DNA of 62,889 bases from Lama guanicoe (Eukaryota). Both the position numbers and the translations under genes were made by a program. Below the pieces are notes generated by a model. That model was not told where the DNA came from, did not search any database, and saw only the letters and a program-made list of their open reading frames with translations. Below, piece by piece: positions 10,884-62,075 of the stretch. The stretch's first letter is position 1; every line of letters starts with the position of its first letter. Location of the stretch: assembly GCA_013239625.1 (NCBI GenBank), contig MU053783.1, positions 1 through 62,889 of the forward strand. Direction: 5' to 3'.

Positions 10884-10884
<1 letters not shown>

Positions 10885-10982
<98 letters not shown>

Positions 10983-10990
10983 CAGACAGA
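10885..10990. repeat. (AGAT)n tetranucleotide microsatellite
   Basis: Directly visible imperfect AGAT/AGAC array. Confidence 0.95.
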
Positions 10991-11199
10991 TTGATATAAA
11001 GGTAGACAGATTTATTTTTGTTACAGAGATTTGACCTTGCACAATCATGAAAAGCTGGTTTAATAGTCTCTGTAACGTGGTTCTCAGCCCACCTGTTGCT
11101 GGATCTTGAAGGGCACAGGACAGGCAGTTGGGAAAGAAAGGGGAATACAAAGTGGGTGACAGCAAGAACAAACTGGATCTTTGGGGACAGCGATACAAA

Positions 11200-12388: not shown

Positions 12389-12390
12389 GA

Positions 12391-12446
<56 letters not shown>

Positions 12447-12490
12447 GAAAAAAAGAAAGGAAGAAAGGAAGGAAGGAAGGAAGAAAGAAA
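12389..12490. repeat. (GAAA)n/(GAAG)n microsatellite
   Basis: Directly visible; lies at the tail of the preceding L1 fragment. Confidence 0.95.
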
Positions 12491-13578
12491 GGCATGAGGT
12501 AGAACTCACAGCCTGAGCTGTGGCCCACGAAGACGAACTGGGATTTGTGTCAGTTCTTCTTACCATTGACCTTGATGGTATGTGTGTCCAGGCCATGTGT
12601 GCTCAGGTCTTCACCGTGGAGCTACACGCACATTCAGGGGTCGGAGAGGCTGGGGGCAGATCTGAGGAAGGCGGGGCAGTGGCAGGCCCTTCTGCCACTG
12701 TGTTATTGAGGTGAGCCTGTAGGAAAGTGACAACAGAGGTGAGCTACCATATGGTCGCTGCTCCACTCCTGCCCCGCAGACCTCGTACAAGAATCTCCCC
12801 TGCAAGTGGTCTGCCCTAAACAAGAGCATACATGGAAGGAAATTCTGGAAAGCATAACCAGGTTAACACACTTCAGATCTACAATACAGAAGATCATTAC
12901 ATCCTGACACTAGTTCAGTGGGGGCAGAGATGTCACAGTGCAAACTAAATATAACCCCAAGGAAGGCAGAGCTGACATAATGCACATGAAAGTATTTATT
13001 ATAAATGTTCATCAGTTCTTTGGAAAAGATTTTGATAGAAAGAAGGCAGCCAGAGACAGTGTGAATTTAAGGGCCCCTGAGAGTGTGGGGGAAGAAGGAA
13101 CAGAACGAGAAAGCAGACCTGAGAGAAGACAGTCTTCCGCCAGCAGCCAGGGCCCTGCACTATTCCACAGACAAACAGAATTCTCCTCTCATGGATGAAA
13201 CTGTTTACTTTAACCTAATAAATATTGATATTCTTATTTGTTAAGGCTCTCACTCAAGTGTGACCATTATGTTTTAAGAGTTAACATAAAATTTAATGAT
13301 AATTTGGCTCTTTTCCAAAAGCAACTCACAAGTAGGAATTCATCTATTTGATTCAATCAAAGCAAGTATTAAATTTTAATTCTGCATCTTGACCTAAAAT
13401 ACATAAAAGGTGTCCTGAAGTTGCCTCCTTGCAGTTTTCTTCATCACTGAGAACTTAGGAGCTTACTGAGTCTTTTAAGTTGTGAATTTGTCAGATTTGG
13501 ACTGGTCTCTGTACAATTTTTGAGAAGAGGAATCATACACAGCTTTTTGGTGCTTTTGTGTGTGTGTGTGTGTGTGTG

Positions 13579-13710
13579 GAGAGAAAGGTAATTAGGTTTA
13601 CTTACTTATTTATTTAAAAATTTTTGTTTATAAATAGAGGTGCTGGGGATTGAACCCAAGACCTCTTGCATGCTAAGCACGCACTCTACTGCTGAGCTGT
13701 ACCCTCCCAC
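13579..13710 (-). mobile_element. tRNA-derived SINE, camelid Vic-1 type
   Basis: The reverse complement reads gggagggtacagctcagcagtagagtgcgtgcttagcatgcaagaggtcttgggttcaatcccc (A and B boxes). An adjacent (TG)n tract lies at 13557-13578. Confidence 0.85.
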
Positions 13711-20244: not shown

Positions 20245-21588
20245 TGGAATAAAGACAGTCTCTTCAGCAAATAGTGCTGGGAAAACTGGACAGTAGCATG
20301 CAAAGCAATTAAGCTAGGACACTCCCTTACACCATACACAAAAATAAACTCAAAATGGATCAAAGACTTAAACATAAGACAAGATGCAATAAACCTCCTA
20401 GAAGAAAATATAGGCAAAACATTATCTGACATACATCTAAAAATGTTCTCCTAGAACAGTCTACCCAAGCAATAGAAATAAAAGCAAGAATAAACAAATG
20501 GGACCTAATGAAACTTACAAGCTTCTGCACAGCAAAGGAAACCATAAGTAAAACAAAAAGACAACCTACAGATTGGGAGAAATTTTTTGCAAATGAAACC
20601 AACAAATATATAGGCAGCTCATATGACTTAATAAGAAACAACCAAACAACCCAGTCCAAAAATGGGCAGAAGATCTAAACAAGCAATTCTCCAAGGAAGA
20701 AATACAAATGATCAATAGGCACATGAAAAAATGCTCAATATCATTAATTATCAGAGAAATGCAAATCAAAACTACAATGAGGTATCACCTCACACCAGTC
20801 AGAATGGCCATCATTCAAAAGTCCACAAATGACAAATGCGGAAGAGGCTGTGGAGAAAAGGGAACCATCCTACACTACTGGTGGGAATGCAGTTTGGTGC
20901 ATCCACTGTGGAAAACAGTATGGAGATTCCTCAAAATACTAGGAATAGACTTACCGTATGTCCCAGGAATCCCACTCCTGGGCATATATCCAGAAGGAAC
21001 CCTTCTTCAAAATGACACCTGCACCCCAATGTTCATAGTGCCACTATTTACAATAGCCAAGACATAGAGACAGCCTAAATGTCCATCAGCAGATGACTGG
21101 ATAAAGAAGAAGTAGTATATTTATACAATGAACTACTATTCAGCCATAAAAACTGACAACATATTGCCATTTGCAGCAACATGGACGTTGCTGGAGAATG
21201 TCATTCTAAGTGAAGTAAGCCAGAAAGTGAAAGAAAAATACCATATGAGATCACTTCTATGTGGAGTCTAAAAAGACCCAAAACATAAATACAAAACAGA
21301 AACTGACTCATAGACATAGAATACAAACTTGTGGTTGCAAAGGGAGTGGGGGTTGGGAAGGGACAGACTGGGATTTCAAAATTAGAATAGATAAACAAGA
21401 TTATATTGTATAGCACAGGGAATCATATACAAGATCTCAGGGTAGCTCACAGCAAAAAAAAGTGACAATGAATATATATATGTTCATGTATAACTAAAAA
21501 ATTGTGCTCTTCACTGGAATTTGACACAACATTGTAAAATGACTGTAACTCAATAAAAACAATGTTAAAAAATAAATTAAATTAAGTT
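20245..21588 (+). mobile_element. 5'-truncated camelid-type L1 (disrupted ORF2 C-terminus, 3'UTR, A-rich tail)
   Basis: ORF 20708-21067 ([30 protein letters not shown]...C...H..W) is the L1 ORF2 C-terminal Cys-rich domain, with frameshifts and stops. AATAAA near 21552. Confidence 0.95.
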
Positions 21589-33374: not shown

Positions 33375-36300
33375 TGATGTCACCAAGATGATGGAGTAGG
33401 ACATCCCAGTCTCTGTCCCCTGACAAAGAAAATCACATAGACAGCTATCCACATACAGCAACAGCTCCAGAAGCACTCTGGAGTCCCCTTAATAAGCTTC
33501 TGCAACACAGTGGAGCAAAAGCAAACAAAAAAACAAACAAACAAAATAAAAATGAGAACAAAACTCTTGTGAATAATTACATAAAGACTGTAGGAAGGAT
33601 AGTTCTTTTTGCATCCTGTCATCCCCAGGCAGGCAGTACTGTGTGACAAGATGGAAATTTTTCTCACTAGGAAAAGGAAAACAGGGTGAGCAAACAGCTT
33701 TCTCAGCCTTCTGGGGCACTGCACCAAGGACCTGCCTCAGCTTCCCACCACCCAGAGACCAGCTAAGATGCCTAGTGACTCACAGGGACAAGGAAGAAAG
33801 ACAGGGACTGTGAGTATCAGGCATGTGGTGGAGTGGTCATGGTTCCCAGTGGCCTGCTCAGCAGAAGACCACAGCATCCTTTGCTGCTGAGGATCTTGGT
33901 AGCCTGTGTGGGTGGTGTGGACTCCCACAGCTTACACAGTGGGGACCCTGTTGTGGAACCCAGTGTACTGTTCTGCAGAGGGCCCAAGCAGCCTTTGCCA
34001 CTGAGGAAACCAATGGCCAGCACAGCTGCTCCAGATACCCTGAACATTTCTCCACTGCGGGCCCCACAGGTTTCTGTGTTCACAGACTCCACCTGTTTGA
34101 GTCCATCCCCACCCTGCCAGCCAGAGCTACTCCAGACAGCAGTGCCATGAATGTCCTGGGCCCTGGAGTTCATGTCTGAAGATATTCCTGGCCTCTGTGG
34201 CTACACAAGTGCACAATGCTAGCTCAGGCCTCTGTGGGGAACCCCCACTGCCATGCATGCATGCACCTGCAGCTAGCCCTGCAGTCACAGGTGTGCACAC
34301 CAATAGCCCAGGCCCCTGAAGCTGCTCAAGCACCCAGGGCCAGCCCCGGCTTCTGTCATTGGCTTTCACCATATGGCACACCTGCATGTCAACAGCCCAG
34401 ACCCTCGTCACCAGCCTCCCACTGCTAGGCACATGCTTGTGAGTAGCCCCTGCAGGCACATGAGTGCATGCTGACAGCCAACTCACCGACAGCCGCTCAT
34501 GTACCAGGAGATGGTCCCAGTCACTTTCTAGACCTACACCAGCATGCATGCCTCCAGATAGCACCTGCTGCTGCACAAGTGCACACCAATGGCTTGGGTC
34601 TCCACAGCTGCTCATGCACCTACAGTTAGCCTGACCTCCATAACTGGTCCTGACACTCACTACAACACATGCTCATGCAACTGGTCCTTGCTGCCATGTG
34701 GGAACCCACAGCCAGACTCCACAGTCAAGTGTATGCACACCACCAGTTCCAGCCACCACTGCCACCTGCCGTGTTCCCTGGCCACTGAGACTGGAGGTGA
34801 CACCAAGGGCTTCAAAAGCCCTCACCATGGACCTGCTGCATCTCTCACCACTAAGGACCATGCAGTTACTGATGTCATGGGCCCCAGCTGTCTTAGCCAA
34901 CAAGGCACTATGCCATCTCAGACCTAGAGCCGACATTTGCCCCTATGCATGGCATACCACACGATGAAGTCCAGGACAACAGTACACTCCAGCATTCACC
35001 CACTCACAGGTAAGTATCTTTGCCTATCAAAGTCAGTCCATAAAACCTGGAAGAGGCGACTGCTTCTTCAAATATACAGACAACTGCACAAGGCAATGGA
35101 GGCCACAAAGAATCAGGCAAACATGATAACACCAAAGGAACACAGTAAGCTTCCAGGAACTGACCCCAAAGAAATGGAGATCTATGCATTGCCTGACAAA
35201 TAATTCAAAATAACTGGCTAAAAGAAGCTCAAAGAGCTCCAAGAGAACACAGATAAATAATCTAACAAAATCAGGAAAACCGTACAAGAACAAAAAAGTT
35301 CAACAAAGAAATAGAAAACATAAAAAAGAACCAAAGAAATTTTGGAGCTGAAAATCATGAGTAATTTAAAAAAGGCAATAAAATACTTCAGCAGAAGACT
35401 CAATCAAGCAGAAGAAAGAATCACTGAACTCAATAATAAGTCATTTGTAATTATCCAGTCATAGGAAAAAAAAACGTGAAAAGAAATAAGAAAGACTATG
35501 GGTCTTAAAGGACTTCATCAAATGAAATCATATTTGCATTATGGGAGTCCCAGAAAGAGAAGAGAGAAAGACAGAAAGTTGATTTCAAGCCACACTGGCT
35601 GAAAACTTTCCTAATTCAGGGAAAGATATGAACACCCAGGTACATGAAGTTCAAAAGTCCCCAGTCAGCTTCAACCCAAAGGAGATTTTACTGAGACATA
35701 TTTCGATAACTTTGATTCAAAAATCAAAGACAATGAGAGAATCTTGAAAGCAGCAAGAGAAAAAAAAAAGGCTCATCACATACAAAGGAATCCCTCCCCC
35801 TACCCAAGGATATCTGTAGATTTCTCAGCAGAAACCTTGCAGATCAGGGAAGAGTGGGATGATATATTCAAAGCACTGAAAGAAAAAAAATGTCAACCAA
35901 GAATACCTTCAACAACAAAGCTATCCCTTTAAATTGAAGGAGAGAGAAACACATTTCCAGACAAGCCAAAGCTGAAGGACTTCATCATCACTACACCTGC
36001 CTTATAAGAAATGCTAAAGGGAGTTCTTTAAGCTAAAAAAAAAAAAAAGGTTGCTAACTAGTAACTGAAATCATATGAAAATATAAAACTCATTGCTAAG
36101 GTAAATATATAGTCACATTCAGAAGACCCTAAGATTGTAACAATGGTGTGTAAGTCACTTACAATTGTAGTACATAGATTAAACAATAAAAGAATTTAAA
36201 ATAACTATAGCAAGAGAAATTTGTTAATGGATGCACAATGTAAAAATATATAAATTGTGATATCAAAAACATAAATATTGGGTGGGTAAAGATATAGAGC

Positions 36301-37378: not shown

Positions 37379-39600
37379 CTCCCTTACTTTTTATCTTTCA
37401 GGAATTTTCAAAATATATGCACCATTGATCATGTCTTTTCTCATTTTCTACTGCTATTACATCTTATCCTTTTAAATTTCTTTTTTGTATCATATAATTT
37501 TGCAGGGAAGAAACATAGTTGTAGATGTTTAATTTGGAATCATTTAATTTTTAGTGCTTCTTTTGGAATGAAAATATGCCTCAAAGCTATTTTCATTTTG
37601 AAAAGGGAAATGGGGAAAAGTTGTGCGCTTGGTGGTGTTCCCAGATTTGCAACATAGTGGCTTCTCTCTCAAATGCTCTTCATGGCAAAGATGACACGGG
37701 CACCTATCAGTAAAATTTGCTTGGTGGCTAGGTAAAGCAACAGATAATAAAAAGTGCCCTCCAGCTTGGAGCTCTCCTCATGCACAAAGCATCCAAAGGA
37801 CTCTGTGCTGAGGAGAATCCTCTTGGTCCATGGCTCTTCCTCTGTGGCTCAGCTCTCTGTCTCCTTGGTTACTCTCTGATTCTGGCATCTAATCCTCCAT
37901 CTGAACTGGGAGAATAAGAGTGTCAGAAGCAGAGTGAATACACCCATTCTCTTTTTAATCAAAAATTATTAAGAAGTAAGAGAAACAAAGAAAAATAGGG
38001 AAAAGTCACTGATATTTATATTAAAAACATAAGAATGGCCCCAGACATATGAAAATATATTCAAACTCACTCATATTCAGAGAAATTCAAATTTTTAAAA
38101 AAACATAAATTCTCACATATCAGACTAGGAAAACGTTTTTAAAATATATAACAATATGTTCTGTGGGTGAAAATGTTGGAAAACATGCACCCTTAAGTGG
38201 GAAATGCATCACCCTTTTGTAGGAAACTCATCAGTAACTAATAAAATTACATAAGCCCCAACGTTTGATTCAGCAGCCTCACATTTAGGAATCTACCTTC
38301 AAACTAAACCTCCAACACTATAAAAACACACATGCTCTAGGTTATGTATCAAAGCATTGCTTGTAAATGTAAAACACTGGATATAATCTAAATGTGTGTG
38401 TATGAATAAGATACACCCGCACAGTGTGAGCTATACAGCTGTGAAAAAATAATAAGAAAGATCTCTATGAATTGATATGGGGTAATTTATAGGACATTCT
38501 GTTAAATGAAAAAACAAAGCATAAAAAATTATTATAGCATGTTATTTTTGTGTAAGAAAAGAAGGGGCATAAAATGATACCCCCAAGTACCTGTTTACTT
38601 TGAAAAAACAAATACAGGAAGGATATAGCCAGAAACTACAGAGACTATTTATCAGTAGGGGTAGGTAGGAAAGGAGAACTGGGGAGTGGATATAAATATA
38701 TATACATATATTTTTCCACATTAAAAAAAAAGGTTATTTCTGAAAGTCTTAGCAGCAAGAAGAGTAACAAAAGGAGAGATGGACCAACAAAACAGAAGGA
38801 GGTTGTGTCCTGTAGGACTTGACTTCATTCTTCAATCAAGTTCTTTATAAGAGTGAGCAAACATGACTGTTCACACAGTGGCTCAGTGAGTCTCTGTCTC
38901 ATGGGGTTCCTCCTGGTCCAGCCTGCAGCCTCCACTGAAGCCAATCCAGGATGGCCACAAGGTGTGCCTCCTTTCTCCAGCCAGTCATGTGCATTTTGTA
39001 TAGCTGTGACTTGGAACAACAGTCATGTTTCATAGACCGTTCATATATCTTAAAATATAAATAATCTAAACCAACTGGGATGTGGAGATTATAATCTCTC
39101 TCCCCAAACTAAGAAGGAATTGGGCCAAGCAAATCTTTTGTCAATAAAGAATGAAAAGTTAAGTAAACATTAAGCAAATAATTGGTCCTATTTAAAAAGT
39201 CAATAGCTTTTAAGAATAAAATTAATTCATGGGTTTTTGAAGAAGTTTTAAAAGTCTGTTTCTAAATCCTGCATGCCACAAGAGACTGGAATAAAACTTA
39301 CACAACATCTTTTTTTCCCTTTTGAAGGAATATTTAATTCAACAAAGGAAAAACAACATGGATTCTCTAAAATAAGTAGGAAACATGGAATGGTCATACA
39401 ATAGAGAGATATGGAAGGTTTACAGATTATTTTAAAAAAGCAAAAAAAAAAAGTGCCATATTAGAACTCCAAATGACATTCTAAAGCACTACATGTAAAT
39501 CACATCAATATTTGAAATATAAAAAAGAAAAAACTGCAACCTGATGAGAGAGTTAAATTTACAGATTGAAAGACTCGGTGTAAAAGGTAATGTTACCAGA

Positions 39601-40710
39601 ACTAAAACAAGAAGACAATCTACGGAATGGGAGAAAATTTTTGCAAATGAAACCGACAAAGGTTTGATCTCCAGAATATATAAGCAGCTCATACGACTCA
39701 ATAATAAAAAAAATAAACAACCCAATTCAAAAATGGGCAGAAGACCTAAACAAGCAATTCTCCAAGGAAGACATACAAATGATCAAAAAGCACAAGAAAA
39801 AATGCTCAATATCACTAATTATCAGAGAAACGCAAATCAAAACTACAATGAGTTATCATCTCACACGAGTCAGAATGGCTGTCATTCAAAAATCCACAAA
39901 TGACAAATGCTGGAGAGGCTGTGGAGAAAGGGGAACCCTCCTACTCTGCTGGTGGGAATGCAGTTTGGTGCAGCCACTGTGGAAAACAGTGTGGAGATTC
40001 CTCAAAAGACTAGGAATAGACTTAACATATGTCCCAGGAATCCCGCTCCTGGGCACATATCCAGAAATAATCCTACTTCAAAATGACACCTGCACCCCAA
40101 TGTTCATAGCAGCATTATTTACAATAGCCAAGACACGGAAACAGCCCCAAAGTCCATGAACAGATGACTGGATAAAGAAGAGGTGGTATATTTATACAAT
40201 GGAATACTATTCAGCAATAAGAAACAACAACATAATGCCATTTGCAGCAATATGGATGTTCCTGGAGAATGTCATTCTACGTGAAGTAAGCCAGAAAGAG
40301 AAAGAAAAATACCATATGAGATCGTTCATACGTGGAATCTAAAAAANNNNNNNNNNNNNNNNNNNNNNNNNNNNNNNNNNNNNNNNNNNNNNNNNNNNNN
40401 NNNNNNNNNNNNNNNNNNNNNNNNNNNNNNNNNNNGAGAATACAGTGGTTACCAGGGGGGTGGAGGGTGGGAAGGGATAGACTGGGATTTTAAAAGTGTA
40501 GAATAGATAAACAAGATTACACTGTATAGCACAGGGAAATATACACAAAATGTTATGTTAACTCACAGAGAAAAAAAGGTGACAATGAGTGTGTATATGT
40601 CCATGAATGACTGAAAAATTGTGCTGAACACTGGAATTTGACACAACATTGTAAAGTGGCTATAAATCAATAAAAAATGGTAAAAAAATCTATGTTTACA
40701 AAAAAAAGCA
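39601..40710 (+). mobile_element. 5'-truncated camelid-type L1 (contains a gap)
   Basis: ORFs 39544-39903 and 39779-40159 match the L1 ORF2 C-terminus (EWEKIFAN...[19 protein letters not shown]). The 3'UTR resembles the 20245 and 52571 copies. Confidence 0.95.
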
Positions 40711-52570: not shown

Positions 52571-53745
52571 CATTGTCTGACACACATCTCAAAAACGTTC
52601 TCCTAGGACAGTCTACCCAAGCAATAGAAATAAAAGCAAGAATAAACAAATGGGACCTAATTAAACTTACAAGCTTCTGCACAGCAAAGGAACCATAAGT
52701 AAAACAAAAAGACAACCTACAGATTGGGAGAAAATTTTTGCAAATGAAACCAACAAATATATAGGCAGCTCATATGACTTAATAAGAAACAACCAAACAG
52801 CCCAGTCCAAAAATGGGCAGAAGATCTAAACAAGCAATTCTCCAAGGAAGAAATACAAATGATCAATAGGCACATGAAAAAATGCTCAATATCATTAATT
52901 ATCAGAAAAATGCAAATCAAAACTACAATGGCCATCATTCAAAAATACACAAATGACAAATGCTGGAGAGGCTGTGGAGAAAAGGGAAGCCTCCTACACT
53001 GCTGGTGGAAATGCAGTTTGATACAGCCACTGTGGAAAACAGTATGGAGATTCCTCAAAAGACTAGGAATAGACTTACCATATGACCCACTAACCCCGCT
53101 CCTGGGCATGTATCCAGAAGGAACCCTACTTCAAAAAGACACCTGCACCCCAAAGTTCATAGCAGCACTATTTACAATAACCAAGACATTGAAACAGCTA
53201 AATGTTCATCAACAGATGACTGGATAAAAAATAAGTGGTATATTTATACAATGGACTACTATTCAGCTATAAAAACTGACAACATAATGCCATTTGCAGC
53301 AACATGGACGTTGCTGGAGAATGTCATTCTAAGTGAAGTAAGCCAGAAAGAGAAAGAAAAATACAATATGAGATGCTCATATGTGGAATCTAAAAAAAAA
53401 AAAAAGAAGGAAAGGAAGAAAGAACAAATAAATACAAATCAGAAACAGACTCACAGACATAGAATACAAACTTGTGGTTGCCAGGGGGTGGGAAGGGGCA
53501 GATTGTGATTTCAAAATGTAGAATAGATAAACAAGATTATACTGTATAGCACAGGGAAATATATACAAGATCTTATGGTAACTCACAGAAAAAAAATGTG
53601 ACAATGAATACATGTATGTTCATGTATAACTGAAAAGTTGTGCTCTTCACTGGGATTTGACACAACATTGTAAAGTGATTATAACTCAATAAAAAATGTT
53701 TTTAAAAAATAAATAAAGTGGGGGTCATAATTAAAAAAGAAAAAA
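52571..53745 (+). mobile_element. 5'-truncated camelid-type L1
   Basis: L1 ORF2 C-terminal peptides (ORFs 52859-53227 and 53251-53508), 3'UTR and A-rich tail. Imperfect TSD aagaacCatt / aagaacTatt. Inserted at the end of a MER5-like element (~52420-52570). Confidence 0.95.
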
Positions 53746-54653: not shown

Positions 54654-56365
54654 AGTCCCCACTGTCAATGTCCATTCCACAATCTTGTGGAAAAAGGGGT
54701 GATGACTATTCTGGCTACTTCCTTCTGAACAGGAGTAAGGAGGGGGTGATCATGGGATGGAGTTGATCAGCCTTGGAAAGAAAATATTCCTTAGAATCTT
54801 TAGTCACTAGTGAAATCTTCTTTGCTTCTTCATCTACAACTACTTGAACCTGATAAAACCACTTAGTACTTTGTTTAACTTGGGGTTTTGGTTCCAGTTC
54901 CCAATACAAATCTATTAATTTTACCTTTCTGACTGTGCCATAATTACAATAGATTCCTCTGTTATTTATTTGGAAAAGGTTAAATGAATAGTTTAACCCT
55001 TTTCCAGCTATAAAAAAATTATTTAAGGAGGACATTACCACTCTGGTGGGTTTTTTTTGCTGGGGTGAGATATGGGTCTGCCCATCCTGAAAAAGACTCC
55101 ACAAACACTAGCAGGTACATGAAACTTCCTGCAGCTTGAGGCATTTGAGCCCTCTGTGGGGCAGGTTCCTCTGTGTTGAGTCCCCATTGTGGGAGGTCTG
55201 ACAGCAATCTTTAGGTTATTTTTAGCACAAATCATGCAATTCTGGGTCATTTGCTGAAAGATTTTTTTATAGGTTAGGCCCCTCTTCCATAATTTTGATA
55301 CCATTACAAGGTGGCATCTCTCCCATAATGAGTACTATTATGAATGCGCCATAGTATAGTTTCCAGAAATGTCTCAGGGATCAAGACAATTCCTTGTGCA
55401 CTACATGGCCAGCCAGGCAAGGCGTGATCAAGAGTGAAACCCCACTCTTTGGCCTTCTCTGTCCTTTTTCTGAATATGCTGCCTTACATTTTGACAGGTC
55501 ATTCTGTGGGAGAAGGGATTCTAACATAGCTTGATAGTTGCCTTAGCAAATCACCCACATGTTGGAGTAAAATCCATCGTACAATATTAAGTTTCTTAGG
55601 TTCCCTAGCCAACATTTCCCTAAAAAGGATAGGGAACTTCTTAAATTCTTGAGGTAGGGCTGTCCAGCAATCCTGTTGGACTACTTGTGTTTTGGGGTCC
55701 TGCCACTCAGAAGCAAATAAGAATGCAGGAAAAAAAGATCTTTCTAGTCCCAAACTGAGAACCAGCCGTGTTCTACTGGAATAGTTGTGAGCAGGGTGGA
55801 AGGATGAGGCACCACAGGGTGTAAGTCTTGGACCACTTCATCAACAGCCCTCAAGTCTTGGACAAAGTGATACTCTGCAGAGTTTGGTTTTCTGACTGGG
55901 AGAATAGGGATGTTGTAGGGGGACCTGCAGGTTGAATCAGTCTTGTTTTTGAAAACTTTTCTAGAATTGGCTGAATTCCCTTTTGGACCTCTTGCCTCTG
56001 ACGATATTGATTTATATTGGGTGTCCAACCCTCCCTTTTTAGTGGGATCTGCACTGGCCATGTGGTTTTGGCTTTCCCAGGGGTTCTGTCAGCCTACACT
56101 TCTGGACTTACCCTGTCATACACCCCAAGGGGAAAGAGCTCTGTCTCCTCCTCTGGGGCTTTCATGAGTGCCATCTGTGGACTTAAAGCACGTTCTGGTG
56201 GAACTGTGATGTTAAGCTGTTCTGGTGAAAATGTTACTTAAGCATTTTATTTACAAAGGAGCTCTCGGCCCAGAGAGGGACTGGATATTCTGGCACATAT
56301 TAGAAACTATGATTCAGGGTGAGGTCTCCTTGTTGGCATTCTGGAGGTTGTTAAGAATGAACAAT
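54654..56365 (-). mobile_element. Internally deleted class I ERV: protease C-terminus, RT and integrase remnants
   Basis: PR: HSF*YVPEYPVPL.GRELLCK (~56230-56340). RT: CRSPYNIPILPVRKPNSAEYHFVQDLRAV...HPVVPHPSTLL and LFASEWQDP...WTALPQEFK...LLQHVGDLL (degenerate YVDD). IN: CMICAKNN and YLLVFVESFSGW. Many stops and frameshifts; no RNase H, env, gag or 5' LTR seen. Confidence 0.9.
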
Positions 56366-57350
56366 TTTGTAATTCTCAATAGAATAGTATATGTACTTAC
56401 AACTTTATACTGTGAACTTAATTGTTTAATATCTACCTTCATGCATGGAAGAGTTTTTATGTTATTATAAAGTATACTTTAATAAGTGTGATAAAGGAGA
56501 ATTACATGATGTTAAGGAATTATGTTAATGTAATGGGCTTTATGAATTCACAAATTAGCTAAGCACTGAGAGTGATTGGAATTAGATAGGCAAGTCTCTT
56601 GAGGGGAGTAGGGGATTGATGTGTAAAAGATTATTTCTAAGAGTGAGAATAGCATGTGTATGCCCCTGTAGCATGAGGGAACATAGTTAAGTACGAGGAT
56701 TGTCAGAAGTATATCTATGATAATGATCCTGAAGGTGAACAAGGAGTGATTTGAGGCTACTAACAAGGGTAAGGCCAAATATGTAACAGTCAGCATATTA
56801 TAGCAGGCTGTCCAGCGAGCCGGCCCTCCGCAGGCGCCACGGGGTGGGCAAGCTCCCCGCGGGGGTCTCGGGCTCCAAGCCCACTGCCCCGCCTCCCTGC
56901 CACATGCTATGCATCGTCCGGGGACGCCACTCGCCGAGAGAGACCCTCAAACACAAGTCACCCGCCCTCCCCACCCTCCTCGCCTTGCCTTGCAACCCCG
57001 CCCCAGAACCGCCCTCCCGATCCCCGTGCAGTAACCCCCGCCCCTCGCCGGGAAGAACTGGCAGTGACTCCAGCAGCCTTGGCGGCTCTTTGAGCCCAAG
57101 GAGCAAGCGAGGCAGCCATTGGCGGAGGCCGCTGCCTCCGGCTGTGAATCCCGTGGCCCCGCCCCGCCCCACCGGCTGAGCCTGGCAGGACAGGGCCGCG
57201 GGGACAGTCGGGACGCCTCCAAGATGGCGGGGCGCTTGGGGTCCGCACCTGCTGGCGGCCCCGAGCCCCGTTCACTGCCACCACTGCTGATCGGAGCCGC
57301 TGGTCGGCCTGGCGAGTCTGGGGGCTGTCCCCGCGTGGCAGGAGGCCGCC

Positions 57351-57803
57351 ATGGCGACCCTGGAAAAGCTGACGAAGGCCATCGAGTCCCTCAAGTACTT
57401 CCAGCAGCCTCAACCGCCACAGCAGCCCGCCCAGCCCCCTCAGCCGGCACCGCAGCTGCCGCCGCCTCGGCCCCCTCAGCCGGTACCGCCTCTGCTGCCT
57501 GCTCAGACTCCTCAGTCGGGACCGCAGCCGCCGCCGCTTCAGCCCTTTCAGCCAGCACCACAGCCGCCGCCTCCTCGGCCCCTTCAGCCGACACCGCAGC
57601 CTCAACCGCCACCGCTGGCCGCCCAGCCCCTCAGCCGGCACAGCCGCCTCAGCCGGTACCGCAGCCGCTGCCGCCTCAGCCCCTTCAGCCGGCACCGCAG
57701 CCTCTACCGCCACTGCCGCCCGCCCAGCCCCCTCAGCCGGCACCGCCGCCTCAACCGCCACCGCCACCCTCCCAGCTGTGTGTCACTAGCCGCTGCACAG
57801 ACG
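57351..57803 (+). pseudogene. HTT: Huntingtin exon 1-like paralogous copy (divergent N17, Pro/Gln-rich minisatellite, degenerate exon end)
   Basis: gccgccATGGCGACCCTGGAAAAGCTG...; MATLEKLTKAIESLKYFQQPQPP matches HTT N17 at 14/17 residues. The 5'UTR matches HTT. The exon end GCTGTG..TAGCCGCTGCACAGACG|gt corresponds to GCTGTG..GAGCCGCTGCACCGACC|gt. One 1-nt deletion near 57630, a second near 57770, and TAG at 57787-57789 in the ancestral frame. Confidence 0.9.
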
Positions 57804-57950
57804 GTGGTCCCTGCGGGCCCCTCCCCAACCCTGCGCGGTCTCCATCCCTCCCTCGGCCTCCCACGAAGGCCCCGGAGGCGGTCCGGGCCCCACGCCTCTG
57901 CTTTCCCGGCTACGAAACTTGGGAAGGAACGGGGCTGTGTTGTGATCTGA
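57351..57950 (+). CDS. Possible single-exon 199-aa HTT-N17/Pro-rich protein (as assembled, frameshifted after ~57630)
   Basis: Open frame from a perfect Kozak ATG. No expression evidence, and GC-rich repeats stay open by chance. Confidence 0.3.
   Translation: MATLEKLTKAIESLKYFQQPQPPQQPAQPPQPAPQLPPPRPPQPVPPLLPAQTPQSGPQPPPLQPFQPAPQPPPPRPLQPTPQPQPPPLAAQPLSRHSRLSRYRSRCRLSPFSRHRSLYRHCRPPSPLSRHRRLNRHRHPPSCVSLAAAQTVVPAGPSPTLRGLHPSLGLPRRPRRRSGPHASAFPATKLGKERGCVVI
57402..57775 (+). repeat. Degenerate 36/48-bp minisatellite encoding (QPPQPAPQPPPP)n
   Basis: The anchor CCC CYT CAG CCG RCA CCG recurs at 57435, 57471, 57507, 57543, 57579, 57627, 57644, 57680 and 57728. Confidence 0.9.
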
Positions 57951-59178
57951 GGCCGCGCGTCCCGTTCGGCTTCCTCTGGGCCACTCCCCACCCCTCTCCT
58001 CTTCCGGGCCAGGTGTAACATTTTGTCTTCCCTTTTCAACTGACTGTTTAAAACAGTGTTTCAGATAACTGTCAAAACACTGTATATGCAAAATACTAGG
58101 TTAACTTAAGGGAAGGAGTAGGAAAGAAGGGGGAAAGGAGCGAAGTTCACCGGTCACTTCTGTGGGGGTGGGTTAGGTGGTCACAGTGGTGAACGCGTAA
58201 CTGCTACATGGCCCCGTCCGCTTACCATCATAGTCGTTACTGTTACTAACCCCGGACAGCCCTGGTATTAAGGAGGCATGACCACAGAACATGTGCTCTT
58301 TGAGCTTAATTTTACACAAACAGTAAGATTTCCACGGAATCAAGACAGGCAGTAAACTCCAGCTGCAGGGGACAGCTTGTGCAGGGCTGGGAAACAGCAT
58401 GGCATGATCAGAACTTTAGTTTGACTGGCTTGAAATTTAGAGGGAAAGGGAAACTTCACACTGATGAATCAGAGAGGAGATAGCTGTTTTTTATTAAACT
58501 AAAATGGTTGAATGAGCCTTGTTGGTTAATGATTTGCCTTAGCAATGTGAATTTGGATTCTGCAAGTATTTTATAAGTTCTGTAAGAAGCTTGTTTTAAA
58601 ATTTCAGAACTCTTAAGGTATTAGAAGTTNNNNNNNNNNNNNNNNNNNNNNNNNNNNNNNNNNNNNNNNNNNNNNNNNNNNNNNNNNNNNNNNNNNNNNN
58701 NNNNNNNNNNNNNNNNNNNNNNNNNNNNNNNNNNNNNNNNNNNNNNNNNNNNNNNNNNNNNNNNNNNNNNNNNNNNNNNNNNNNNNNNNNNNNNNNNNNN
58801 NNNNNNNNNNNNNNNNNNNNNNNNNNNNNNNNNNNNNNNNNNNNNNNNNTTTTATGTTGAGAAAAAAATTTTGGATTTTAAAAAAAACCCAAAAAAGGGC
58901 TATGAGGGGGAGAAAAAACAAAAAACTGATTTTTTTTTTTAATTCACCGTAAGGTGCATTCTTAAATACATAGGAGAGAACTGTCATGATTTGCGCAACT
59001 CGCTTGCAAATAGTTCAACAGTATTAACAATGATTGAATTTAGGTGGTGGGCATATGGGAATTTATCATCCTATTAAACAGTTTTCTGTACTTCTGAGAC
59101 TTATGATAAAACATTGGAAGGAGTCTGTTAGACATAATGCTCTATGTGAAGTAATTTGTTCCCTTTGTGAAATTCTAG

Positions 59179-59264
59179 GAAGGTTAAAATGCATGTTCAT
59201 AACATCAAGAAAATCACAAGCATTTATGATGTAATCAGAACTACCTGAGGATCTGTGAAACTTG
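59179..59264 (+). pseudogene. NAALAD2: NAALAD2-like exon (~exon 9)
   Basis: ag|G AAG GTT AAA ATG CAT...CTT G|gtgagt. KVKMHVHNIKKITSIYDVIRTT*GSVKL versus [28 protein letters not shown]. TGA at 59246-59248. Confidence 0.9.
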
Positions 59265-59545: not shown

Positions 59546-59665
59546 ACAGATGTGTTATTCTGGGAGATCATCAGGACTTCTGGGTATTTGGAGGTATTGA
59601 CCTAACCAGTGGAACTGCTGATTTATAAGAAGTTGTCCAGAATTTTGGAAAACTGATTAGTAGAG
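59546..59665 (+). pseudogene. NAALAD2: NAALAD2-like exon (~exon 10)
   Basis: ttccag|...|gtaaat. [40 protein letters not shown] versus [41 protein letters not shown]. TAA at 59626-59628. Confidence 0.92.
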
Positions 59666-59770: not shown

Positions 59771-59852
59771 GCTGGAGACTGAGAAGAACAGAACTGCCAT
59801 CCAGCTGGGATGCAGAAAAATTTGGACTTCTGGGTTCCACAAATGGGCTGAG
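59771..59852 (+). pseudogene. NAALAD2: NAALAD2-like exon (~exon 11)
   Basis: GWRLRRTELPSSWDAEKFGLLGST-(1-nt deletion)-WAE|gtaact versus [28 protein letters not shown]. The acceptor is damaged or shifted by one base. Confidence 0.9.
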
Positions 59853-62011: not shown

Positions 62012-62075
62012 GAGAATGTGAAAACACTCCAGGAGAGAGAGGTTGCATATATCAATGCAGACTCATACACAGAAG
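62012..62075 (+). pseudogene. NAALAD2: NAALAD2-like exon (~exon 12)
   Basis: ctacag|GAG AAT GTG AAA...GAA G|gtaaat. ENVKTLQEREVAYINADSYTEG versus [22 protein letters not shown]. Confidence 0.92.

Follow-up and report, generated by a model that had tools for sequence, protein, structure and literature searches.

An HTT-NAALAD2 chimera in the guanaco genome

The guanaco (Lama guanicoe) contig analyzed here carries a copy of the CpG island, promoter, and first exon of HTT, the gene for huntingtin, placed upstream of four NAALAD2-like exons, and we judge it probable that this locus is a decaying chimeric duplicate in which a triplet-built repeat expands without constraint. The window, i.e., the whole contig MU053783.1 of assembly GCA_013239625.1, is 62,889 nt long. 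Judged by sequence comparison, the HTT-NAALAD2 chimera is a multi-copy camelid family, with four camel RefSeq models each splicing an HTT-exon-1-like segment to the NAALAD2-like exons seen here. The original prediction had described a natural HTT exon 1 variant in which polyQ is lost and the proline-rich domain (PRD) amplified. Its reading of the array as an amplified HTT PRD with polyQ nearly gone holds; the exon, by comparison, belongs to a paralogous chimeric duplicate whose frame is broken as assembled.

HTT-like CpG island, N17, and exon end

At ~56,750 to 56,800, GC content climbs from ~0.37 to 0.77, and the number of CpG per 100 nt goes from 0 to 9. The resulting CpG island spans ~56,800 to ~58,250, with CpG observed/expected of 0.69 to 0.87 over 56,901 to 58,100, in a window of ~36% GC with L1 remnants. 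Its first part (56,800 to 57,350, plus strand; left edge approximate) is assigned to an HTT-type CpG island with promoter and 5' leader, all copied, and we take the island to be the HTT promoter, judging by its position and by the human sequence. Matches of camel models to the window begin at 56,915 (XP_074220927.1) and 57,224 (XP_064350340.1). An island still CpG-rich in such surroundings, together with a donor and acceptors common to the copies, could mean that RNA or promoter is what has been retained, the HTT CpG island driving a non-coding transcript or acting on a neighbor while the repeat is a passenger. CpG retention also follows, however, from germ-line hypomethylation without function, and no intact neighboring gene was recognized among the 29 ORFs scanned; retention of this kind is in our estimation quite unlikely.

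The N17-like segment (57,351 to 57,401, plus strand) starts at the ATG at 57,351 and matches huntingtin (PDB 6n8c; E = 5.6e-4). Three of its 17 residues differ from HTT (M8T, F11I, and S16Y), so N17 is not conserved. It is followed by a remnant polyQ of two CAG codons (57,402 to 57,407, plus strand), just as originally predicted and below the four Gln of native HTT. At its other end, the exon closes with a degenerate exon 1 end (57,776 to 57,803, plus strand) and a GT donor directly after 57,803. The native-equivalent frame is shifted there and meets a TAG at 57,787 to 57,789. The in-frame EEPLHRP ending of exon 1, present in the HTT reference and in mammalian alignment rows, is absent, and the exon-end frame common to the window and three camel models ends S-R/C-C-T-D. 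The ATG frame of the window as assembled exits the exon in phase 0, while the three camel models and the second Pro register of the window exit in phase 1 (a common 1-nt shift).

An upstream ATG (57,224 to 57,226, plus strand), 127 nt before the HTT ATG and in a different frame, is the start codon of XP_064350340.1. Its frame is open for 580 nt (57,224 to 57,803) to the donor and exits in phase 1. It owes its exit in the frame of the three camel models to the 1-nt loss described below for the array, and the match may be a one-in-three coincidence.

Structure and reading frame of the PRD minisatellite

The PRD minisatellite (57,402 to 57,775, plus strand) consists of a partial B unit, four A units (36 nt each), a B unit (47 nt), an 18-nt stub, an A unit (36 nt), and two B units (48 nt each). 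Tandem Repeats Finder, the check suggested with the original prediction, confirms the tandem array, reporting periods of 36, 48, and 18 nt and a higher-order period of 101 nt (scores 95 to 329). Nine unit anchors are spaced 36, 36, 36, 36, 47, 18, 36, and 48 nt apart. This agrees with the nine units proposed earlier; a predicted pair of spacings of 48 and 17 nt, against 47 and 18 nt here, is the same 65 nt placed differently. Units diverge 4 to 19% from their consensus. Tandem units thus come with length variation of the kind expected of a coding variable-number repeat, the variation being seen between copies of the chimera.

The single non-triplet spacing had been noticed correctly, but it marks a frameshift. 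At a run of four C (57,627 to 57,630, plus strand), which is five C in two sister units, the ATG frame leaves the Pro/Gln register, and the array as assembled does not keep its frame. A single-frame Pro/Gln reading of ~125 codons had been proposed; with this 1-nt loss it ends after 76 codons. Pro+Gln content in the ATG frame is 74% over those 76 codons and 13% over the next 47, whereas the Pro/Gln register beyond the C run sits in another frame (79% Pro+Gln). Read unspliced, the ATG frame comprises 199 codons and stops at 57,948. The shorter C run could be either a real mutation or a homopolymer error; 454 data were included in some alpaca assemblies (PMC6598621, in excerpt). A Pfam search with the ATG-frame product gave nothing at E = 0.01 and only a sub-threshold Ndc1 match; the product is low-complexity.

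The absence of stop codons, correctly observed in the original prediction, does not serve as a signal of coding. No stop triplet occurs in any of the three plus-strand frames of the 374-nt array, and 963 of 2,000 dinucleotide shuffles of it are also stop-free in one frame, so that an open frame here is uninformative. The phasing of the repeat is equally explicable from its composition. CCN or CAR accounts for 94 of the 124 array triplets, and the autocorrelation of the array reaches 0.47 at lag 3 and, at lag 36, 0.67, compared with 0.24 to 0.30 at lags 1, 2, 4, and 5. Because the substrate is itself built of CCN/CAR triplets, steps in multiples of three follow from it, and we reject selection on codon phasing. 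The suggestion that phasing reflects a retained protein is set aside on these grounds and because substitutions among the units are neutral (see below).

NAALAD2-like exons and the identity of the locus

Four NAALAD2-like exons, co-oriented with the HTT-like exon and with intact GT donors, lie 1.4 kb downstream of it. The intervening intron (57,804 to 59,178, plus strand; 1,375 nt) contains a 220-N gap (58,630 to 58,849) and the point at which HTT and NAALAD2 DNA meet. We number the four exons, presumably correctly, 9 to 12. Exon 9 (59,179 to 59,264, plus strand) has a TGA at 59,246 in the peptidase frame; an alternative frame of it ends XP_074217408.1 and XP_064350340.1, with 16/16 and 17/18 residues identical. 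Exon 10 (59,546 to 59,665, plus strand), the splice target of XP_074220927.1 and XP_074210891.1, has a TAA at 59,626, and its best PDB match is GCPIII (3fec; E = 9.9e-11), ahead of GCPII (5.4e-9). It has tandem acceptors 4 nt apart, at 59,546 and 59,550, and two camel models use one each. Exon 11 (~59,772 to 59,852, plus strand) has a frameshift near its 3' end, an altered acceptor, and a Lys at the position aligned to E425 of GCPII, which is a zinc ligand in that enzyme; its best PDB match is marginally GCPII. Exon 12 (62,012 to 62,075, plus strand) is open, with GCPIII again the best PDB match (3fec; E = 0.0058), making GCPIII (NAALAD2) the best match for two of the three exons searched. A search for upstream NAALAD2 exons with 13 short motifs, a weak test, gave nothing convincing in the window.

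No splice route through these exons gives a peptidase: all nine combinations of phase and acceptor stop in the first NAALAD2-like exon after 2 to 27 residues. An active M28B peptidase (NAALAD2/GCPIII) is excluded by the TGA at 59,246, the TAA at 59,626, the exon 11 frameshift, and the Lys at the E425 equivalent. A functional fused frame of the USP6 type was likewise rejected, with all nine routes stopping early and an array pN/pS of 1.41.

The two co-oriented, intron-containing parts derive from two unrelated genes, as expected of a chimera. Given that NAALAD2-like exons follow, that HTT exon 2 has no match, and that neither poly(A) nor a convincing target-site duplication is found, the HTT-like part appears to be a DNA-level copy, neither a retrocopy nor the native gene. 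An HTT exon 2 query gave a best E of 0.83 in the window, which holds only 5 kb downstream of the exon, a space that the NAALAD2-like exons occupy. A processed pseudogene was rejected: exon 1 is not joined to exon 2, and a GT donor and GC-rich non-exonic DNA follow it. The search for insertion marks found no A run of at least 7 nt before the gap and a single 8-mer common to the two boundary zones, a weak test given that the right boundary is unmapped.

The N17-like start, CpG island, and donor do stand in the order expected of a working camelid HTT exon 1, one naturally lacking polyQ and with an expanded PRD, and no camelid HTT row occurs in the 12 of 25 exon-1 alignment files searched (Iennaco supplements). 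We nevertheless hold this reading to be extremely unlikely. The exon has three N17 changes, frameshifts, and a stop; NAALAD2-like exons lie downstream of it, with no exon 2 match in the window; and camel genomes carry several copies each. Across vertebrates, purifying selection acts on N17 and on four Gln, and pig, cattle, and dog have an unchanged N17, long Gln runs, and ~30 to 33 PRD codons, as counted by eye (PMC8817008 and its supplement, in excerpt). A search with residues 1 to 40 against proteins of 350 to 2,000 aa, a range that leaves out full-length HTT, scored 0 of 224 candidates.

A camelid family of chimeric copies

The four camel models are predictions, and the spliced chimeric transcript is accordingly a predicted one. 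Three are from Camelus bactrianus: XP_074210891.1 (LOC141575487; 98 aa, 2 Gln, spliced to exon 10, on a 25.1-Mb contig), XP_074217408.1 (LOC141577167; 86 aa, 0 Gln, to exon 9, on a 164.1-Mb contig), and XP_074220927.1 (LOC141577846; 265 aa in a shifted frame, with the acceptor 4 nt into exon 10, on a 113.8-Mb contig). The fourth, XP_064350340.1 (also XP_064350341.1), is from Camelus dromedarius, with 134 aa, 4 Gln, the upstream ATG, and splicing to exon 9. The copies are dispersed, since the three C. bactrianus loci lie on three different contigs. They were retrieved in three ways: the exon at 59,546 as query gave two C. bactrianus chimeras among 3 candidates, a full-library search with one C. 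bactrianus model gave the third among 29 matches, and a profile of two models gave the dromedary chimera (4 matches among 8,000 scored). Two of the 29 library matches were chimeras (XP_074210891.1 and XP_074217408.1), and 13 of the other 27, which were inspected, were M28 fragments or unrelated proteins; the unrelated library proteins matched mostly via proline-rich stretches.

Identity between the window and the camel models is 92 to 100% in the NAALAD2-like exons. Closest to the window is XP_074220927.1, with 25 of 26 exon 10 residues identical, the same end point, and a long array. Window and camel models share the HTT-exon-1-like segment and the NAALAD2-like exons to which it is spliced; they differ from each other in arrays, Gln counts, starts, and acceptors, and the likeness is one of sequence rather than demonstrated orthology. 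After N17 there are 4, 2, and 0 Gln in three camel models and 2 in the window, and probably ~1 in XP_074220927.1, as decoded from its shifted frame. N17 to exon end covers ~42 to 54 codons in three camel models, which approaches the 30 to 33 PRD codons of pig, cattle, and dog once flanks are added. XP_074220927.1 has a ~136-codon array with the same blocks as the window in a different order and without an internal frameshift. The PRD is therefore near normal in three of the five copies and expanded in two (the window, ~fourfold, and XP_074220927.1). With three copies near normal and XP_074220927.1 sharing exon 10 and carrying reordered blocks, the expansion appears to have arisen on one branch and to have kept turning over.

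The 220-N gap between the two parts, and the difficulty of assembling GC-rich arrays, might suggest that assembly has artificially produced the array or the join of HTT to NAALAD2. The same join in four models from two camel species indicates that scaffolding did not create the join across the gap, the 4 to 19% divergence of the units from their consensus is unlike artificial copies, and an array of comparable length exists in a camel copy; we consider an artefact very unlikely. A search of sequencing runs returned 14 rows (shares 0.21 to 0.46; 6 studies, 4 species labels), which is not evidence of presence, and the 6 rows for RNA runs (shares 0.06 to 0.12) are not evidence of expression. A metagenome scan with a 27-nt exon pattern gave 0 matches. 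We found no description of an HTT-NAALAD2 chimera in the titles and abstract starts of open-license PMC and bioRxiv articles.

Decay versus constraint

Eight array units, compared with the unit consensus, carry 25 non-synonymous and 7 synonymous changes (pN/pS = 1.41; binomial P = 0.56 against neutrality), as if the array were unconstrained. This test rests on 32 changes, is consensus-based, includes slippage events, and covers neither the partial first unit nor the 18-nt stub. Within N17, 4 of 17 residues differ between window and dromedary copy, compared with 7 of 37 in the read-through 5' leader and 1 of 18 in the AT-rich exon tail. Faster change over the whole GC-rich part than in the AT-rich tail would explain this pattern.

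Several observations run against decay: the 18-residue out-of-frame tail differs at only 1 to 2 of 18 positions, the N17-PRD frame is open to the splice in three camel models (protein databases do favor open copies), and the 136-codon camel array has no internal frameshift. N17 changes are also clustered: 5 of 16 codons (residues 7, 8, 11, 16, and 17) account for at least 9 events. The probability of 5 or fewer codons being hit is ~0.06. Met8 is replaced in all five copies, the fifth decoded by eye from the shifted frame of XP_074220927.1. Four different residues occur there across copies (P = ~0.03 for at least 4 on one codon, a post hoc value obtained without a tree from copies that are not independent).

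It is conceivable, then, that the family encodes retained and diversified polyQ-free HTT-exon-1-like small proteins with an altered N17 helix, a PRD, and a short tail, acting as decoys or adaptors for partners of N17 and the PRD, and that the frameshift in the window is an assembly error or marks a dead allele. Open N17-PRD-tail ORFs of 86, 98, and 134 aa at three camel loci fit this, as do the 11 of 16 N17 codons that are unchanged in the four copies with readable N17, changes being confined to the five residues listed above and always including Met8. The CRM1 export signal of N17 comprises L4, L7, F11, L14, and S16 (PMC3596850, in excerpt); the changes F11I/L and S16Y keep or add hydrophobicity at this signal, and the N17 changes, mostly conservative, fall on the face and export signal set out in that paper. 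Moreover, the frame is broken by one base only, within a run of C, and the upstream-ATG frame is open in the window and ends in the family's tail frame. On the other side, array substitutions are neutral, N17 divergence is not below that of the leader, the models differ in starts, frames, and acceptors, their stops lie upstream of further exons, and the dromedary change L7P would be expected to disrupt the helix. Weighing these, we think such proteins unlikely. Camelids would in that case have an unrecognized HTT-exon-1-derived small-gene family with an HTT promoter, repeated loss of Met8 and polyQ, and a PRD of ~30 to ~130 codons, which could titrate N17/PRD partners or huntingtin itself; we regard this with comparable, marginally greater doubt. 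Should the short ORFs prove to be translated and under constraint, no earlier natural huntingtin exon-1 proteins free of polyQ were met in the searches, and these would be the first; the evidence leans to decay.

Proposed origin of the chimera

A decaying chimeric duplicate could have arisen as follows. In a camelid ancestor, a DNA-level copy would have been made of HTT exon 1 together with its CpG island and promoter, and the block would have come to lie upstream of a NAALAD2 copy's 3' half. The chimeric block then may have been duplicated to several places; the copies are multiple, and the order of events is our suggestion. The native-equivalent frame exits exon 1 in phase 2, which fits the peptidase frame of the first NAALAD2-like exon, so that the chimera may have begun as an in-frame fusion. 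The 1-nt loss near the exon-1 end, found in four of five copies, and the stops in the peptidase frame probably ended the fusion early: the phases are observed, and the timing is conjectural. The borrowed promoter probably still drives spliced RNAs, as the predicted models suggest, with short ORFs stopping in the first NAALAD2-like exon. A stop upstream of further exons predicts nonsense-mediated decay, which such RNAs would thus be expected to undergo. With the purifying selection on native exon 1 lifted, the CAG run would have eroded, while slippage and unequal exchange would have lengthened the proline-rich segment of CCN/CAR triplets, each step being a multiple of three because the substrate is. 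Of the two expanded copies, the window would then hold one, whose assembled array carries an additional frameshift.

Comparison with known systems

HTT is, to our knowledge, treated as a single-copy gene. In the literature searched, the only other mammalian HTT copy was a marmoset retrocopy. This copy (pHTT) comprises exons 1 to 9 in a CNTNAP3 intron, and its disrupted CAG tract and many PRD indels have been read as loss of selection (PMC8817008, in excerpt). The camelid locus is likewise an extra HTT copy with decay of the CAG tract and PRD. Unlike marmoset pHTT, it appears to have been copied at the DNA level, with promoter and donor, is fused to another gene, exists in multiple copies, and has a fourfold PRD.

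Hominoid USP6/Tre2 and the core duplicons are chimeric genes and pseudogenes from mosaic segmental duplications. The camelid copies resemble such chimeras in that one gene supplies the promoter and first exon, another the 3' exons behind them, with amplification following. USP6 keeps a functional fused enzyme, whereas at least three exons of the peptidase half are disrupted here. A product of the camelid locus would also resemble HTT1a, the huntingtin exon-1 fragment, in comprising N17 and PRD without the rest of huntingtin. It would differ in having loci of its own, a polyQ that is short or absent, changed N17 residues, and a tail of foreign origin, and it is known here as predicted ORFs. The locus thus works like a mosaic-duplication chimera in decay, of note for the involvement of HTT and for the replicated loss of polyQ.

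At least five camelid copies amount to a replicated natural experiment on HTT exon 1 without selection, in which the CAG run shrinks (4, 2, 2, ~1, and 0 Gln) while the proline-rich repeat can quadruple. The copies bear on why the native CAG and PRD tracts sit where they do. They can also confound PCR or short-read genotyping of camelid HTT exon 1. Four RefSeq proteins are named uninformatively or wrongly. The names of the camel models mention neither HTT nor NAALAD2, and XP_064350340.1 and XP_064350341.1 are misnamed "submaxillary gland androgen-regulated protein 3B" (SMR3B), probably from proline richness.

Other repeats in the window

Directly upstream of the CpG island is a decayed gammaretrovirus-like pol (54,715 to 56,300, minus strand) that matches MMLV reverse transcriptase (E = 9e-17), with an integrase-like stretch near 55,035 to 55,334 recognized by eye. 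Three L1 3' fragments on the plus strand (20,439 to 21,581, 39,489 to 40,688, and 52,591 to 53,717) are ~81 to 97% alike over aligned pieces, and an older L1 5' remnant lies near 34,900 to 36,000 (Pfam PF17490). Four loosely similar 38-nt GC-rich copies (34,195 to 34,602, plus strand; 61 to 71% identity) lie in a local GC peak and are possibly an L1 5' UTR repeat. The only Rfam match, a marginal tRNA-like one at 13,635 to 13,706 on the minus strand (30.2 bits against a cutoff of 29), is probably the head of a tRNA-derived SINE; ARAGORN finds no tRNA. The window also has two long microsatellites, ATAG repeated 32 times at 10,884 to 11,011 and GAAA repeated 26 times at 12,389 to 12,491.
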